Source: Escherichia coli (GTDB lineage: Bacteria; Pseudomonadota; Gammaproteobacteria; Enterobacterales; Enterobacteriaceae). From it: 64,000 nucleotides of DNA. The notes under the pieces were generated by a model. The model had not been told where the DNA came from and searched no databases. It saw only the letters and a program-made list of their open reading frames with translations. This document shows positions 11,186 to 62,878 of this stretch, piece after piece (the stretch's first letter is position 1; each line of letters opens with the position of its first letter). Where the stretch lies: NCBI RefSeq assembly GCF_003018255.1, contig NZ_CP027440.1; one strand, given 5' to 3'. The position numbers were made by a program, and so were the translations under genes.

Positions 11186-11243
11186 GTATCGCATCAGGCA
11201 TTTATCGCCTGATGCGACACTGGTGTGTCTTTTCAGGCCTACA
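11186..11243. repeat. REP-type palindromic element downstream of ygfZ
   Basis: GTATCGCATCAGGC ... GCCTGATGCGACAC inverted repeat followed by ...TTTTCAGGCCTAC, matching REP consensus features. Confidence 0.55.
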
Positions 11244-13868: not shown

Positions 13869-14032
13869 TTAGCCGATGTGCCTGATGTGCTCCGCTCATC
13901 AGGCCTGGCACTCTTTTAATATATTGAGCTCGCAATATTTTATATTACGCCTCAGTCGAAACACACAAAGCGCACTTTATTAACAAGCTAAAAGGCGCCG
14001 AAGCGCCTTTAGAAAATAGTCGAATCAGTGAA

Positions 14033-16906
14033 TTACTGGTATTCGCTAATCGGTACGCAGGAGCAGAACAGGTTACGGTCGCCGTAAACATCATCCAGAC
14101 GTTTCACTGTCGGCCAGTATTTGTCTGCCACGCCTGCCGGGAATACCGCAACTTCACGGCTGTACGGATGCGCCCACTCGGCGACCAGTTCGCTCTGAAT
14201 GTGCGGCGCGTTCACCAGCGGGTTATCTTCCAGCGGCCAGACACCGGCTTTCACCTGGTTAATTTCTGCGCGGATAGCCAGCATCGCGTCGATAAAGCGA
14301 TCCAGTTCCACTTTGCTTTCGGATTCGGTCGGTTCAACCATCAGCGTACCCGCCACCGGGAATGACATGGTCGGCGCGTGGAAACCGTAGTCGATCAGAC
14401 GCTTGGCAATATCCAGTTCGCTGATGCCGGTTTCTTCTTTCAGCGGACGAATATCAAGAATACATTCGTGCGCCACGCGACCGTCGCGACCGGTATACAG
14501 CACCGGGAAAGCATCCTGCAGGCGGCTGGCAATATAGTTGGCGTTAAGAATTGCCACCTGGCTTGCTTTTTTCAGCCCTTCTGCGCCCATCATGCGGATG
14601 TACATCCAGCTGATTGGCAGGATAGAGGCACTACCGAACGGTGCCGCAGAAACCGCGCCCTGACGGGTTAACATGCCTTCGATTTGCACCACGCTATGAC
14701 CCGGTACAAACGGTGCCAAATGCGCTTTCACACCGATCGGTCCCATACCTGGGCCGCCGCCACCGTGCGGAATGCAGAAAGTTTTATGCAGGTTAAGGTG
14801 CGAGACGTCCGCGCCAATAAAGCCCGGTGAGGTGATGCCGACCTGGGCGTTCATGTTCGCGCCATCAAGGTAAACCTGACCGCCGAACTGATGCACGACT
14901 TCACACACTTCACGGATCGTTTCTTCGTACACGCCGTGGGTGGAAGGATAAGTCACCATGATGCAGGAGAGATTATCGCCCGCCTGTTCCGCTTTCGCGC
15001 GCAGGTCAGTCAGATCGATGTTGCCATTTTTATCACATGCCACAACCACCACCTGCATTCCTGCCATATGTGCAGAAGCGGGGTTAGTTCCGTGCGCAGA
15101 AGCCGGGATCAGGCAGATATCGCGATGCCCTTCGTTGCGGCTTTCATGATAATGACGAATCGCCAGCAGGCCCGCATATTCGCCCTGTGCACCAGAGTTC
15201 GGCTGCATACAAACGGCGTCGTAACCGGTCAGTTTCACCAGCCAGTCAGCCAACTGCGCAATCATCTGCTGATAACCTTCTGCCTGTTCCGGCGGGCAGA
15301 ACGGGTGCAGTTCGGCAAATTCCGGCCAGGTGATGGGGATCATCTCGGCGGCGGCGTTCAGTTTCATGGTGCAGGAACCCAGCGGGATCATCGCCTGATT
15401 CAGCGCCAGATCTTTACGCTCCAGCGAGTGCATATAGCGCATCATTTCGGTTTCGCTGTGGTAGCGATTAAACACCGGATGGGTGAGGATTTCGTCGTCG
15501 CGCAACATTGCAGGCTGAATAGAGCGGCTATCGTGAGCCACGTCTTTGTCCAGCGTGTCGATGTCCAGTCCGTGGTTATCGCCCAGCAGTACGCTGAAAA
15601 GCTGCATCACGTTTTCACGCGTGGTGGTTTCATCAAGGGTGATCCCAACCGCGTTCAGAATATCGCTACGCAGGTTGATTTCAGCCGCTTCGGCACGCGC
15701 CAGTACGCCCGCTTTGTCGGCCACTTCCACACACAAAGTGTCGAAATAGTGCGCATGACGCAGTTTCAGACCTTTTTGTTGCAGGCCCGCCGCCAGGATA
15801 TCGGTCAGACGGTGGATGCGGTTAGCGATACGTTTCAGGCCCACCGGGCCGTGATAAACGGCATACAGGCTGGCGATGTTTGCCAGCAGTACCTGGGAAG
15901 TACAAATGTTGGAGTTCGCTTTCTCACGGCGAATATGTTGCTCGCGAGTCTGCATCGCCATGCGCAGAGCGGTATTGCCAGCTGCATCTTTCGATACACC
16001 GATAATACGGCCCGGCATTGAGCGTTTGTATTCATCTTTCGCCGCAAAGAATGCTGCGTGTGGGCCACCGTAGCCCATCGGCACACCGAAGCGTTGCGCC
16101 GAACCAAAGACAATATCCGCGCCCTGTTTACCAGGCGCAGTTAACAGCACCAGCGCCATAATATCGGCGGCGACACTGACCACAATTTTGCGTGATTTCA
16201 GTTCGCTGATGAGCGCAGTGTAGTCGTGGATTTCACCGGTTGTGCCAACCTGCTGTAACAGCACGCCGAAGACGTCCTGATGGTCGAGCACTTTTTGCGC
16301 GTCATCGACAATCACTTCAAAACCAAAGGTTTCGGCACGAGTACGTACCACATCCAACGTTTGCGGATGGACGTCAGAAGCAACAAAGAAGCGGTTGGCA
16401 TTTTTCAGTTTGCTGACGCGTTTAGCCATCGCCATTGCTTCGGCGGCAGCGGTGGCCTCGTCCAGAAGAGAAGCAGAGGCCATATCCAGTCCAGTCAAAT
16501 CCAGCGTTACCTGCTGGAAGTTGAGCAGTGCTTCAAGGCGGCCCTGGGAGACTTCAGGTTGATACGGAGTATACGCGGTATACCAGCCCGGATTTTCCAG
16601 CATGTTACGCAGAATAACCGGCGGTAGCTGCACGGCGGTGTAACCCATGCCGATGTAAGACGTGAAGCGTTTATTGCGACTGGCAATAGCCTTGAGTTCC
16701 GCCAGCGCGGCGTATTCGGTCGCCGGTGCGCCAACCTGCGGCGGGGTCGCAAGCTGAATATCTTTCGGCACAATCTGGCCGGTCAGCGCGTTTAACGATT
16801 GTGCGCCAACGGCATTCAGCATTTCTTGCTGTTGCGCGGCGTCCGGTCCGATATGGCGTTCAATAAAAGCGCCGCTGTTTTCAAGCTGGCTTAACGTCTG
16901 TGTCAT
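14033..16906 (-). CDS. gcvP: Glycine dehydrogenase (decarboxylating), glycine cleavage P protein (957 aa)
   Basis: ORF 14033-16990 trimmed to the ATG at 16906 ([10 protein letters not shown]...); PLP-dependent P-protein. Confidence 0.95.
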
Positions 16907-23847: not shown

Positions 23848-24033
23848 ATTTCTCTGAGATGTTCGCAAGCGGGCCAGTCCCCTGAGCCGATATTTCATAC
23901 CACAAGAATGTGGCGCTCCGCGGTTGGTGAGCATGCTCGGTCCGTCCGAGAAGCCTTAAAACTGCGACGACACATTCACCTTGAACCAAGGGTTCAAGGG
24001 TTACAGCCTGCGGCGGCATCTCGGAGATTCCCT
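23848..24033 (+). ncRNA. ssrS: 6S RNA, RNA polymerase sigma-70 holoenzyme regulator
   Basis: Sequence ATTTCTCTGAGATGTTCGCAAGCGGGCCAGTCCCCTGAGCCGATATTTCATACCACAAGAATGTGGCGCTCCGCGG... matches E. coli 6S RNA as I recall it; lies between zapA and ygfA. Confidence 0.9.
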
Positions 24034-24654: not shown

Positions 24655-24711
24655 GGGCGACACACCTGCATCGCCCTGATTGACATCGTTGATTCTTTAA
24701 CCTAATTTAGT

Positions 24712-24856
24712 GAGTAAGGGTAAGGGAGGATGACTCCTCCCCTGAGACTGACTGTTAATAAGCTGGGAAACTTATGAGTAACAGTACAATCAGTATGATG
24801 ACAAGTCGCATCATAACCCTTCTCCTTCAAGCCCTCGCTTCGGTGAGGGCTTTACC
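24712..24856 (+). ncRNA. sibC: SibC-type antisense sRNA (type I antitoxin); boundaries approximate
   Basis: + strand region fully antisense to ibsC, ending in the hairpin GCCCTC-gcttcggt-GAGGGC followed by TTT; K-12 has sibC/ibsC between ygfA and serA. Confidence 0.5.
24755..24814 (-). CDS. ibsC: Type I toxin IbsC, 19-aa hydrophobic peptide
   Basis: Minus-strand ORF read from sequence: ATGATGCGACTTGTCATCATACTGATTGTACTGTTACTCATAAGTTTCCCAGCTTATTAA = MMRLVIILIVLLLISFPAY; GGAGAAGGG SD upstream. Confidence 0.7.
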   Translation of the reverse strand: MMRLVIILIVLLLISFPAY

Positions 24857-37627: not shown

Positions 37628-37770
37628 TCAATATTCCTTTTCAACTGACTCAAAATGGAGAAATACACTCCGCCGCCTTATGACGGGCAGTCTGACAAGG
37701 GTAAACAATAAAGCATAATTTTGCCAAATAGATCACAGATTTCTCATCTGCATCACCTTGCTTTTGGCGA

Positions 37771-37793
37771 AAAAAAGACCCGCAGAGCGGGCC
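37771..37793 (-). terminator. fbaA rho-independent terminator
   Basis: Short hairpin CCCGC-aga-GCGGG; on the - strand followed by TCTTTTTTT, about 25 nt after the fbaA stop. Confidence 0.5.
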
Positions 37794-42868: not shown

Positions 42869-43184
42869 TCAATGCAGGGAGTCTATTATATTACACGTTT
42901 GGTCCGCGCCGCCGATCAGTAATGTCTGCGTCCGCACCCCATTCGCCGTCTGTTGGATACCGTTCACCAACTCGCCGCCCGTCACGCCCGTAGCGCTAAA
43001 GAGGATATCGTTCCCCCTCGCCGATAACCACTCGCCCACGAAAAGCGACGTCGTTTAATGCCTGGCGCATCGCGGTGACCGCCAGGCCATCAATTTTATT
43101 TTTGTCGCCACATCCGGTTTGCGGCCAGGCAGCCAACGCTGCCTGTTCCGTAACGCGAAATAATGGCCACGCCAGGGACATCAT
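42869..43184 (-). pseudogene. yggF: Remnant of class II fructose-1,6-bisphosphatase gene yggF (GlpX family): about 56 N-terminal codons joined out of frame to about 40 C-terminal codons
   Basis: Track ORF 42996-43184 ([20 protein letters not shown]...VVIGEGE) is a GlpX-type N-terminus ending in a premature TAG; the +1 frame of the same DNA continues ...[49 protein letters not shown] to a stop at 42869; only about 0.33 kb remains where a roughly 1-kb gene is expected. Confidence 0.6.
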
Positions 43185-46332: not shown

Positions 46333-46708
46333 AAATAATCCTTATTTTATTTTTAGGGCACCGTCCGGCGGTAAAAATAAAATACTCGTGCGGTTTAATG
46401 AAAGCAATTGGGTACGCGAGAAGAAAAACCCCATGAACAAAAATAATAAAACTTTAAATAACAACAACATGAAATTGATATTTTTAAAGTCAACTTTGTA
46501 TTTGTTATGTTTATCACAAAATCAACATTTTGATTGTTGTTGTATTTGTGATACATATCGCCATTTATTTATTGAATGTCCGAAAGCATACTTTTCTAAT
46601 GCAATGTTTTTTCGCTATACCCCTTTATAGATTCTGAATTCTCACCTGTCGGCTATTTTCTCCTCACCTCATGTGACATATTCCCCACTTTACTCAAGGA
46701 AGATTCAT

Positions 46709-47617
46709 ATGAAAGCACCTGTTTCAATAACCTCATTTCGCCCACAAAAATCTATTGCTATCGTCATTGGCGTGCTTGCCGTGGTTGTGCTGCCATTTCT
46801 CTCGTATTACACCGTTAATGAAGGTGAACGCGGCATTTTGCTGCGCTACGGAAAAATCGTAAAAGTTGCCGAGCCGGGTCTGGGTTTTAAGATCCCTTTT
46901 ATGGAAAGCGTGGAGAAAATTTCCACGCGTAATCAGGCTGTGGTTTATCAGGGATTACAGGCCTACAGCCGCGACCAGCAACCGGCACAAATGACAGTAT
47001 CAGTCAGCTTCCACATTAAACCTTCAGAAGCAGGCGCGGTTTATACCACCTACAACACCATTGAAGCATTAAAAGATCGTCTGATTGTCCGTCAGTTGCC
47101 AACTCAACTGGAGAACGTTTTCGGCCAATATACCGCCATCAGCGCCGTACAGGATCGTACAAAACTGGTTCAGGATCTACAAAATGCAATGCGTAAAGCC
47201 GTTGTTGGCCCGGTGGTGATTGATGGTGTCCAGATTGAAAATATTGATTTTTCTGACGCTTATGAAAAATCGATTGAAGATCGAATGAAAGCAGAAGTCG
47301 CCATTGCCACACGTAAGCAAAATCTGGAAACAGAGAAAATCCAGGCGCAAATAGCGGTAACTCAGGCCCAGGCAGAAGCAGACAGTAAACTGGCGGCAGC
47401 CAAAGCAGAAGCTGAGACTATTCGCGTAAGAGGCGCGGCAGAGGCTGAAACTATTCGTTTAAAAAGTGCGGCTGAAGCAGAAGCGATCCGCCTGCGCGGT
47501 GAAGCTCTGCGGGATAATCCCGGACTTGTTGCCCTCACCACTGCTGAGCGTTGGGACGGTAAGCTACCCGATACCATGATCCCCGGCAGTACAGTTCCGT
47601 TTATCTCTACTAAGTAA
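46709..47617 (+). CDS. SPFH/band-7 (stomatin/prohibitin/flotillin/HflKC-like) membrane protein, 302 aa, stand-alone
   Basis: ORF 46673-47617 trimmed to the ATG at 46709 with AAGGAAG 6 nt upstream; one N-terminal TM helix, SPFH core, C-terminal Ala/Glu-rich tail with tandem AEAETIR-like repeats; not at this position in K-12 as I recall. Confidence 0.8.
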   Translation: MKAPVSITSFRPQKSIAIVIGVLAVVVLPFLSYYTVNEGERGILLRYGKIVKVAEPGLGFKIPFMESVEKISTRNQAVVYQGLQAYSRDQQPAQMTVSVSFHIKPSEAGAVYTTYNTIEALKDRLIVRQLPTQLENVFGQYTAISAVQDRTKLVQDLQNAMRKAVVGPVVIDGVQIENIDFSDAYEKSIEDRMKAEVAIATRKQNLETEKIQAQIAVTQAQAEADSKLAAAKAEAETIRVRGAAEAETIRLKSAAEAEAIRLRGEALRDNPGLVALTTAERWDGKLPDTMIPGSTVPFISTK

Positions 47618-47645
47618 AAAAAGGGCCGCTTTCGCGGCCCTTCTC
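47616..47645. terminator. tktA rho-independent terminator, also abutting the SPFH gene stop
   Basis: Hairpin GGGCCGC-tttc-GCGGCCC flanked by A7 on the + side; on the - strand followed by TTTTTTT. Confidence 0.6.
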
Positions 47646-47662
47646 ACAAAGCATCTTACCGA

Positions 47663-50706: not shown

Positions 50707-50743
<37 letters not shown>

Positions 50744-51769: not shown

Positions 51770-51836
51770 TTGGATTTGCGAAACACAATTTTGTGCTAAT
51801 TATCGCCTTAAATGGGCGAGGCATCAAGCGAGGTTG

Positions 51837-52568
51837 CTATTTCCGACACGGTGGCGGCGCATAGCCATTGTTATCTGCCGGAAAGGCTTGTCCAGAGCAC
51901 GGCGGCAGCGCGTTTTGCGCCGGGCCTTGTAATTCAAAGGCGGCAAAGCCGATTACACCGGTATTACGCACATCGCCTTGCGCCGAATTGGCTGCGTAGG
52001 AATCAGCAACGTTGGCGAACTGAAAAGCCGCTTCGGTATGTTTATCTTTGCGGAATCCTTTAATCGCTAACGAATCTCCGGCATTCACAATATAGCCGTT
52101 GTTATTCAGCGAACCTTGCTTGCCGTTCAGCACATCCAGGCCATCAACCGTAGCAACGATCTCGTAGTTGGTGTTACGACTGTAATTGCGGACATATAAT
52201 TGATAATTCATTCCTACTCTGGCATGGACAATATAGCGTGGTTCATTATTTGACGAATCATAAACCCGCGTAATAGGTAGAGAATTAAAATTACCATCGC
52301 GAATAGCATATTCAAGTTCGTTAATACGAATGCTATAAACGCGGTCATAGCCGGAAGGAACAGTAGTCGAATAACTAATAACGATCATCTCTGCCGGATC
52401 GCGCCAAGCTCGCTCAGCAGATACGCCCTGAACCGTTGAGTGCACATCCCCACCCCAGGCGGTGCCGACATTGCCTGATGCACTGCTATTATACTGCGCA
52501 TTACTGGAACAACCGGCCAGCAGCACGGCTAATGCTATCAACGCGCTACGTACTTTCCCTTTTTTCAT
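51837..52568 (-). CDS. Lipoprotein of unknown function (243 aa)
   Basis: ORF 51837-52568; signal peptide with lipobox LLAG-C (MKKGKVRSALIALAVLLAGCSSN); GAGGGA SD upstream; Asn/Ser/Tyr/Gly-rich mature region with two C-terminal Cys; not at this position in K-12 as I recall. Confidence 0.75.
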   Translation of the reverse strand: MKKGKVRSALIALAVLLAGCSSNAQYNSSASGNVGTAWGGDVHSTVQGVSAERAWRDPAEMIVISYSTTVPSGYDRVYSIRINELEYAIRDGNFNSLPITRVYDSSNNEPRYIVHARVGMNYQLYVRNYSRNTNYEIVATVDGLDVLNGKQGSLNNNGYIVNAGDSLAIKGFRKDKHTEAAFQFANVADSYAANSAQGDVRNTGVIGFAAFELQGPAQNALPPCSGQAFPADNNGYAPPPCRK

Positions 52569-52655
52569 AACCGTTCCCTCTGCATTTAATTAATGCAGCG
52601 ATTGTAGGGAGATTATTTAATAAGAAAAGCAGCTAAATTATTTTTAAGAATATAT

Positions 52656-52696
52656 AAAAAGAAAGCGGGCCGATTTACGTAAATAAATCGACCCGC
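52656..52696 (-). terminator. speA rho-independent terminator
   Basis: 13-bp stem GCGGGCCGATTTA / TAAATCGACCCGC with one mismatch; on the - strand followed by TTTCTTTTT, about 20 nt after the speA stop. Confidence 0.55.
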
Positions 52697-52713
52697 CAGC
52701 GGAATAATCTTAA

Positions 52714-56690: not shown

Positions 56691-57072
56691 ACCTCACCGC
56701 GGTGGATAGACATTCACGCCGCATCCGGCAAAAAAACGCCCGCAATAACATCATTCTTCCTCAACACGTTTTACCGCAAATTATCATCACGACTGAAACC
56801 GATTACACCAACCACACCAGCCAAATATTTGTAATATTTTCATATTATTATTCGGCTTTCACAGTTGTTACATTTCTTTTCAGTAAAGTCTTAATTGCAG
56901 ATAACAGCGTTTAATCTATGATGATATAACTCAATTATTTTCATGCACTTAAATCATAACTAAGATAAATGTTAGTGTAAGCGATTACACTGATGTGATT
57001 TGCTTCACATCTTTTTACGTCGTACTCACCTATCTTAATTCACAATAAAAAATAACCATATTGGAGGGCATC

Positions 57073-62289: not shown

Positions 62290-62705
62290 TGAGTGGAACC
62301 TTACTCGCCTTCGACTTCGGCACCAAAAGCATTGGCGTAGCGGTCGGCCAACGCATTACCGGCACCGCTCGTCCTTTGCCTGCAATTAAAGCGCAGGACG
62401 GTACGCCGGACTGGAACATTATCGAGCGTTTACTGAAAGAGTGGCAGCCTGACGAAATCATCGTCGGTTTGCCGCTGAATATGGACGGCACCGAACAGCC
62501 GTTAACCGCCAGAGCGCGTAAATTTGCCAACCGTATTCATGGTCGTTTCGGTGTTGAAGTAAAGCTCCATGACGAGCGTCTTAGCACCGTGGAGGCACGT
62601 TCCGGTCTGTTTGAACAGGGCGGCTATCGGGCGCTCAACAAAGGCAAAGTCGACTCTGCCTCTGCGGTTATTATTCTCGAAAGCTATTTCGAGCAGGGAT
62701 ATTAA
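62289..62705 (+). CDS. ruvX: YqgF/RuvC-like nuclease, pre-16S rRNA processing (138 aa)
   Basis: ORF 62163-62705 trimmed to [21 protein letters not shown]... Confidence 0.85.
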
Positions 62706-62753
62706 GGCGATTTACTAGCGCACAGATTTCTGACAATGTGCTCGTTGTTTCAT

Positions 62754-62851
62754 GTTGGATGCGGCGTAAACGCCTTATCCAACCTACAGTGAGTGCGAAT
62801 TCAAAGTTACGCTTCCCTTGTAGGCCCGATAAGCTTGCGCATCGGGCCTAT
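62754..62851. repeat. BIME: two REP elements in inverted orientation
   Basis: GTTGGATGCGGCGTAAACGCCTTATCCAACCTAC and, about 30 nt on, GTAGGCCCGATAAGCTTGCGCATCGGGCCTAT, between convergent ruvX and yggR. Confidence 0.6.
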
Positions 62852-62878
62852 TTACAATTCGTATCAGACACAGCAACG

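Follow-up and report, generated by a model that had tools for sequence, protein, structure and literature searches.

The palindromes in four intergenic gaps of the Escherichia coli DNA analyzed here (a stretch of 64,000 nucleotides, hereafter the window) are, with high confidence, members of the E. coli REP family of classes Y, Z1 and Z2, and the two that lie between ruvX and yggR form one BIME of BIME-1 architecture. The four gaps (ygfZ/trhA, bglA/gcvP, loiP/speB and ruvX/yggR) all lie between convergent genes, as judged from the ORF ends and the K-12 annotation, and the names ruvX, yggR, ygfZ, loiP and bglA agree with the RefSeq annotation of homologous megablast matches. A first-pass annotation of the window had placed REP copies in convergent or intergenic gaps, and the copies that it named are indeed all found between the stop codons of convergent genes. 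The REPs and the BIME of the window are ordinary and already known; descriptions of such elements go back to the 1980s, and it is documented that they vary between strains. They have little significance beyond correct annotation: the gaps are best masked or labelled as REPs, to avoid confusion with mobile-element ends, small RNAs or terminators.

Family membership of the palindromes

An Rfam scan of the whole window matched 6S RNA and a Sib RNA only, and no REP site, and a covariance model was therefore built for the purpose. No REP features are annotated in the MG1655 RefSeq record. Half-site pattern searches scored above shuffled sequence but were noisy, with many matches in coding sequences, which was a further reason for using the covariance model. 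The training set comprised 23 REPs from two 50-kb K-12 stretches far from the region (around rayT and around the mal genes). These fall into three classes of 34, 36 and 29 nt, which match the published Y, Z2 and Z1 consensus sequences (PMC11208160, Methods). They were aligned to give a model with the hairpin as its structure, and the 64-kb window was scanned with filters off on both strands. One regular-expression match (15811-15844) was unsupported by the model and was dismissed as chance. The two Rfam matches, 6S RNA (ssrS, 23848-24031) and the Sib antitoxin RNA (sibC, 24680-24830), are at their expected positions; in K-12 the ibsC toxin lies opposite sibC.

All of the sites named in the first-pass annotation were recovered by the covariance model, and beyond them only a truncated remnant next to metK, which was missing from that annotation's list. 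Outside the six matches listed, nothing in the 64 kb had an E value below 3. The features, with their scores where the model gave one, are as follows.

11186-11199, plus strand: truncated REP arm, GTATCGCATCAGGC, which begins 7 nt past the stop codon of ygfZ
11207-11242, minus strand: Z2-type REP, GTAGGCCTGAAAAGACACACCAGTGTCGCATCAGGC, ending 13 nt from the trhA stop codon; 31.9 bits, E 8e-5
13880-13908, minus strand: degenerate Z1-like REP, CCAGGCCTGATGAGCGGAGCACATCAGGC, 29 nt; 16.3 bits, E 0.15 (marginal, from a mixed-class model)
50709-50742, plus strand: Y-type REP, GTAGGTCGGATAAGGCGTTCACGCCGCATCCGAC; 53.4 bits, E 2e-9
56704-56730, plus strand: truncated Y REP remnant, GGATAGACATTCACGCCGCATCCGGCA, lacking the 5' arm and lying directly past the metK terminator hairpin; 12.5 bits, E about 1 (56704-56726, a local match to model positions 8-31)
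62754-62787 (62753 when the full 35-nt consensus is included), minus strand: Y-type REP, the left member of the BIME; 47.5 bits, E 4e-8
62788-62819, no strand: linker of 32 nt, separating CTAC and GTAG heads that face one another
62820-62847, plus strand: Z1-type REP, the right member of the BIME, with a palindrome that reaches 62851; 32.2 bits, E 7e-5

The four strong copies have the GTAG motif at 62787-62784 (minus), 62820-62823 (plus), 11242-11239 (minus) and 50709-50712 (plus). In the predicted folds of the Y copies, a 2x2 internal loop separates an outer stem of 7 bp from an inner stem of 4 bp; the stem of the Z1 copy is bulged. The hairpins are stable: -17 kcal/mol for the Y copy at 62754-62787 (z -4.2 to -4.4), -18.8 kcal/mol for that at 50709-50742 (z -4.6) and -19.9 kcal/mol for Z1 at 62820-62847 (z -4.5).

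An ungapped comparison with the Y, Z1 and Z2 consensus sequences of PMC11208160 was also made, with 200 dinucleotide shuffles as the control. The mismatches numbered 4 of 35 for the Y copy at 62753, 3 of 35 for the Y copy at 50709, 5 of 37 for the Z2 copy at 11207-11242 and 6 of 30 for the bglA copy; the best of the 200 shuffles had 10 (Y), 12 (Z2) and 9 (Z1). The Z1 copy at 62820 is absent from this ungapped scan because of a 1-nt loop deletion, with which the covariance model copes.

The copies are also repeated elsewhere in the genome. When the candidates were compared by BLAST with 100 kb of unrelated K-12 DNA, the Y copies had 10-12 matches with E<0.01 (ten for that at 62754-62787) and the Z2 copy had four. 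Among 5,426 complete E. coli genomes, the 104-nt ruvX-yggR BIME had at least 40 matching places per genome in 4,926 records, which bears out the earlier description of these repeats as native to E. coli. A 281-nt loiP-speB query containing the Y REP had a median of 9 megablast places per genome.

All of the palindromes lie just past stop codons between convergent genes, where gene-specific transcription terminators, or chance hairpins superficially like REPs, might also be suspected, and the bglA copy is weak enough to lend this some color (16.3 bits, E 0.15, hairpin z about -3). However, four copies score E 8e-5 or better against a model trained on unrelated loci, the copies are 3-6 mismatches from the published consensus where shuffles have at least 9, and dozens of copies are present per genome. 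In addition, no intrinsic terminator (a GC-rich hairpin followed by a T-run) was detected in 62706-62878 on either strand, the sole match of the scanned region being inside yggR. The terminator or chance explanation is already refuted for the four strong copies and is extremely improbable for the set as a whole.

The sites outside the ruvX-yggR gap are as follows. After loiP, where a single REP had been reported at 50709-50743, there is a Y REP: its GTAG begins 18 nt past the loiP stop codon and its end is 38 nt before the speB stop codon. After ygfZ, a single palindrome had been reported at 11186-11243; REP material is present there, but it consists of a truncated arm (11186-11199) and a full Z2 REP (11207-11242), not one palindrome. 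The arm pairs with the left arm of the neighboring Z2 REP as a 14-nt inverted repeat (93% complementary), and the minimum-energy fold of the site uses these two arms (-27.7 kcal/mol, z -5.7). The ygfZ-trhA gap is just 76 nt and is filled nearly completely by REP material; the 11186-11199 fragment is found in K-12 too. The remnant next to metK includes an exact GCCGGATGCGGCG on the minus strand and is kept in K-12 (positions 23913-23935 of the K-12 segment), where the orthologue scores 20.7 bits.

The weaker REP-like copy that had been noted after bglA (at about 13879-13905) was recovered at 13880-13908, 11 nt past the bglA stop codon. It has CCAG where the conserved GTAG is expected, and its hairpin z is only -2.6 to -3.0. 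The loss of GTAG, the E value of 0.15 from the mixed-class model and the position of the copy, at the edge of a replacement of 1023 nt by 121 nt, could together indicate a hairpin of other origin that remained at the boundary of the ygfF indel. Against this, the copy has 24/30 identity to the published Z1 consensus, which beats 200 of 200 shuffles, an identity of 89% with the unrelated K-12 Z1 REP of mmuM-afuC across 28 nt, and the 29-nt length and stem layout of Z1. An unrelated hairpin is thus unlikely; judged from these alignments, the bglA copy is most likely a decayed Z1 REP.

The BIME between ruvX and yggR

Between the ruvX stop codon (62703-62705) and 62879, where the minus-strand ORF of yggR ends, there is a gap of 173 nt. 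The two inverted REP copies that the first-pass annotation had seen in it were both confirmed by their model scores and by alignment to BIME-1 elements. The Y REP (62754-62787) reads GTTGGATGCGGCGTAAACGCCTTATCCAACCTAC on the strand of the window and, from 62753 to 62787 on the minus strand in the GTAG orientation, GTAGGTTGGATAAGGCGTTTACGCCGCATCCAAC(A); its stem carries compensatory changes from CCGG to CCAA/TTGG. The Z1 REP (62820-62847) reads GTAGGCCCGATAAGCTTGCGCATCGGGC and is the same as the K-12 Z1 copy at ruvX-yggR, with no differences; relative to the family it has a compensatory T-A to C-G stem change. The whole unit of 114 nt folds at -40 to -42 kcal/mol on either strand.

Two canonical K-12 BIME-1 elements, one from mscS-fbaA and one from ubiA-plsB, can be aligned with the element over its full length, and all three consist of an inverted Y, a linker and Z1. 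On this alignment the ruvX-yggR pair is a single BIME of BIME-1 architecture, comprising an inverted Y, a 32-nt L-like linker and Z1.

In an inverted-repeat search, 62774-62788 was 80% complementary to 62819-62833. A pair of inverted arms separated by about 30 nt, in a gap that is polymorphic between strains, might instead be the terminal inverted repeats of a MITE or of an IS remnant. However, the arms of 62754-62851 come from different REP classes (Y and Z1), each is a palindrome in itself, and the unit aligns with K-12 BIME-1 elements. No flanking target-site duplication was seen in the gap sequence, and there is no transposase ORF, nor any ORF, between the arms. A real IS insertion at this locus looks otherwise, being a 1.27-kb IS621 inside a REP. 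It is therefore highly improbable that the pair is a MITE or IS remnant, and the assignment to a BIME is preferred. The earlier statement that these repeats are not mobile-element ends holds insofar as they delimit no IS or transposon; it is right only in a loose sense, since the RayT transposase uses REPs as substrates (PMC3333891).

The linker (62788-62819) shares TGCnAATTCA with the BIME-1 L motif, as seen in the alignment with the K-12 mscS-fbaA and ubiA-plsB elements. Compared with the K-12 L motif it lacks 2 nt and has substitutions within the core of the IHF site. On this comparison the linker is homologous to the BIME-1 L motif but diverged from it. IHF binds BIME-1 linkers, and the linkers of both K-12 elements match the IHF consensus WATCARNNNNTTR with 1 mismatch. 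In the window linker a consensus scan found no match to WATCARNNNNTTR at 1 mismatch or fewer, and the position homologous to the K-12 IHF site, read by eye, has 3 mismatches. Because the IHF consensus is degraded in the linker, the element was filed as BIME-1 in architecture with a doubtful IHF site; the IHF binding typical of BIME-1 linkers is probably weak or lost at ruvX-yggR.

Variation between strains and insertion of IS621

The window is not from K-12 and is about 96-98% identical to K-12 over most of the region. Segments of 281 nt and 201 nt are 100% identical to the chicken isolate strain 104 (NZ_CP029164.1). Nissle 1917 shares the ruvX-yggR gap of the window at 99% or more, and UTI89 and further strains share it at about 99%. 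The orthologous 68 kb of K-12 contains 11 REPs with E of 1e-4 or better, and the window contains 4 (4-5 overall). The BIMEs that are present in K-12 and absent from the window are invisible from the window sequence alone.

Alignment of the window with K-12 revealed nine structural differences, five of which are at REP or BIME sites, and the REP-bearing gaps differ from K-12 in all four cases. At ygfZ-trhA, K-12 is 119 nt longer, with an extra Z2'+Y unit (giving Z2'+Y+Z2) and a junction overlap of 29 nt. At loiP-speB, it is 113 nt longer, with an extra Y+Z2 unit and a junction overlap of 56 nt. The ruvX-yggR gap is replaced wholesale between the two, and the ygfF indel, with the degenerate Z1 at its left edge, is another of the five. 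The fifth lies in the mscS-fbaA gap.

37758-37791, no strand: empty site in the mscS-fbaA gap, from the window/K-12 alignment

K-12 has an additional 168 nt at this site, made up of a canonical BIME-1 (REPs of 59.1 and 42.2 bits) and a second, diverged copy of the fbaA terminator. Direct repeats of about 40 nt, copies of the fbaA terminator hairpin, stand on both sides of the K-12 BIME. The gap is empty in about 7 and filled in about 16 of 24 sampled genomes. Most of the minor structural differences that set this strain apart from K-12 in the region are accounted for by REP sites.

Other differences from K-12 were observed along the window. At 13869-13989 the window has 121 nt where K-12 has 1023 nt comprising ygfF and its flanks; the bglA-gcvP junction without ygfF is found in 2349 of 5426 genomes, including O157:H7 and strain 042. 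At about 43011-43019, some 650 nt inside yggF (K-12 3075368-3076008) are missing, with a 9-nt junction overlap, and yggF is probably truncated in this strain. Between cmtB and tktA there is an additional 1.25 kb (46411-47661) with a 314-aa ORF (46673-47617, plus strand) that contains an SPFH/Band_7 domain (Pfam PF01145, E 6e-32). Between speB and speA there is an additional 0.9 kb (51779-52713) with a 243-aa ORF (51837-52568, minus strand), which starts with a lipoprotein-like signal peptide and had no Pfam match.

For each ruvX-yggR allele, the count is of those genomes, among the 5,426, in which at least 80% of its gap sequence was covered.

Window type: 2 REPs, 859 genomes
K-12 / O157 type (Y-Z2-Z1): 3 REPs, 2312 genomes
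212-nt variant: 3 REPs, 182 genomes
114-nt variant: 1.5 REPs, 597 genomes

At least five alleles of this gap are present among the 5,426 genomes. These four, together with a form containing IS621, sum to less than 5,426, and more variants must therefore exist. Copy number also varies at the other loci: the single-REP allele at ygfZ is found in 3154 of 5421 genomes, and the loiP locus has spans of 237, 281, 394 and 508 nt, the single-REP allele being rare and most genomes 113 nt longer.

These observations agree with the earlier suggestion that the repeats are hotspots of recombination and insertion: five of the nine differences from K-12 are at REP sites, copy number varies at every locus tested (ruvX-yggR, ygfZ, loiP and mscS-fbaA), and about 155 genomes have IS621 inside a REP of the ruvX-yggR gap. 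The unit-sized indels and the 29-56 nt of junction homology would fit unequal recombination or slippage, and would equally fit a RayT-mediated exchange.

Strain elppa6 (NZ_CP083497.1) has an IS110-family IS621 transposase gene between ruvX and yggR. The element is 1.27 kb (1646-2926 of the extracted elppa6 locus) and interrupts the Z2 REP of the gap. Its insertion site on the minus strand is CTTATCAGAC-CT-ACAGCC, with CT at both junctions, and is one mismatch from the natural IS621 target ATCAGGCCTAC (PMC11208160). A 140-nt query spanning the IS621 junction was covered to at least 80% in 153 records, or 157 of the 5,426 genomes (about 3%). One insertion event, or a small number of them, may account for the genomes with IS621 in this gap. 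That the gap is a recurrent natural landing site of IS621 is possible but rather doubtful. If the insertions arose independently several times, the BIME would be a preferred docking site and the window allele a naive, perfectly matched target.

The target sites of IS621 in REPs are set by its bridge RNA (PMC11208160; Choi et al. 2003, cited there). The sequence that this RNA's target-binding loop encodes, ATCGGGCCTAC, was present at just two insertion sites in BL21(DE3) (PMC11208160). The minus strand of the Z1 REP is an exact ATCGGGCCTAC at 62820-62830, the sole exact match in the window, and no IS621 was found within the 64 kb. The Z1 REP at 62820-62847 is a predicted high-affinity target of IS621, which is relevant to the use of bridge-recombinase tools in this strain.

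Possible roles and likeness to known elements

From the family we infer possible roles for the REPs of the window in mRNA protection, ribosome stalling, gyrase or IHF binding and processing by RayT. Transcripts of the flanking genes would include the gaps as their 3' untranslated ends, and the GC-rich hairpins (-17 to -20 kcal/mol each) may block 3'-to-5' exonucleases and so set or stabilize mRNA 3' ends. Hairpins that begin 7-11 nt past a stop codon, as at ygfZ and bglA, may slow ribosomes at the termination stage. REPs near stop codons may lower translation, as reportedly described by Liang, Rudd and Deutscher (Mol Cell 2015).

As DNA, REPs could serve as short dispersed homologies and as hairpin-forming sites. 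Unequal recombination or replication slippage between them would add or remove Y+Z units, as in the 113-nt and 119-nt differences from K-12. The RayT/TnpA(REP) transposase may be able to cleave and rejoin the REPs, and REP-targeting insertion sequences may land in them. RayT/TnpA(REP) requires GTAG and the stem mismatch, cuts at a CT within either the linker or the inverted REP, and can bring about BIME recombination; REPs are also similar to the sub-terminal hairpins found in IS200/IS605 elements, and tnpA(REP) has been lost in some B2 strains (PMC3333891). The ruvX-yggR BIME carries the sequence prerequisites for RayT, namely GTAG, the mismatch and a REP paired with an inverted REP.

In most respects the copies in the window resemble the E. 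coli REPs of Stern and Higgins and of the nomenclature of Gilson, Bachellier and Hofnung (summarized in PMC3333891). They are likewise imperfect palindromes of 28-36 nt with a 5' GTAG, with an internal stem mismatch and an extragenic position, in a family of hundreds of copies per genome, and they are 3-5 mismatches from the consensus. They differ in their compensatory stem changes, in the loss of GTAG at bglA and in the truncation of two copies (11186-11199 and 56704-56730).

The ruvX-yggR element resembles BIME-1 (RIB/RIP) in that it is present as a single copy, has its Y and Z1 REPs inverted relative to each other and CTAC facing GTAG, and has TGCnAATTCA in its linker. The linker is 32 nt, compared with 35-36 nt in BIME-1, and its 2-nt deletion and IHF-core substitutions leave it a poor match to the IHF consensus. 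At the same locus K-12 has an atypical Y-Z2-Z1 BIME in place of the Y-Z1 of the window.

BIME-2 elements consist of Y+Z2 units, usually in tandem arrays, with a short S linker and gyrase sites, and the K-12 alleles at ygfZ-trhA and loiP-speB consist of such alternating Y and Z2 REPs. The window retains one REP of each array and, unlike BIME-2, has no pair or array at ygfZ or loiP. Gyrase prefers BIME-2 arrays and Y REPs (PMC6379681); with single REPs at ygfZ and loiP, gyrase targeting would be less expected there.

Sites in the window also resemble the known IS621 targets. The natural insertions at ruvX-yggR sit in a Z2 REP (ATCAGACCTAC), which the window allele lacks. However, the ygfZ Z2 REP differs by one mismatch from the natural target ATCAGGCCTAC, and the Z1 REP of the BIME holds the target encoded by the bridge RNA, ATCGGGCCTAC.
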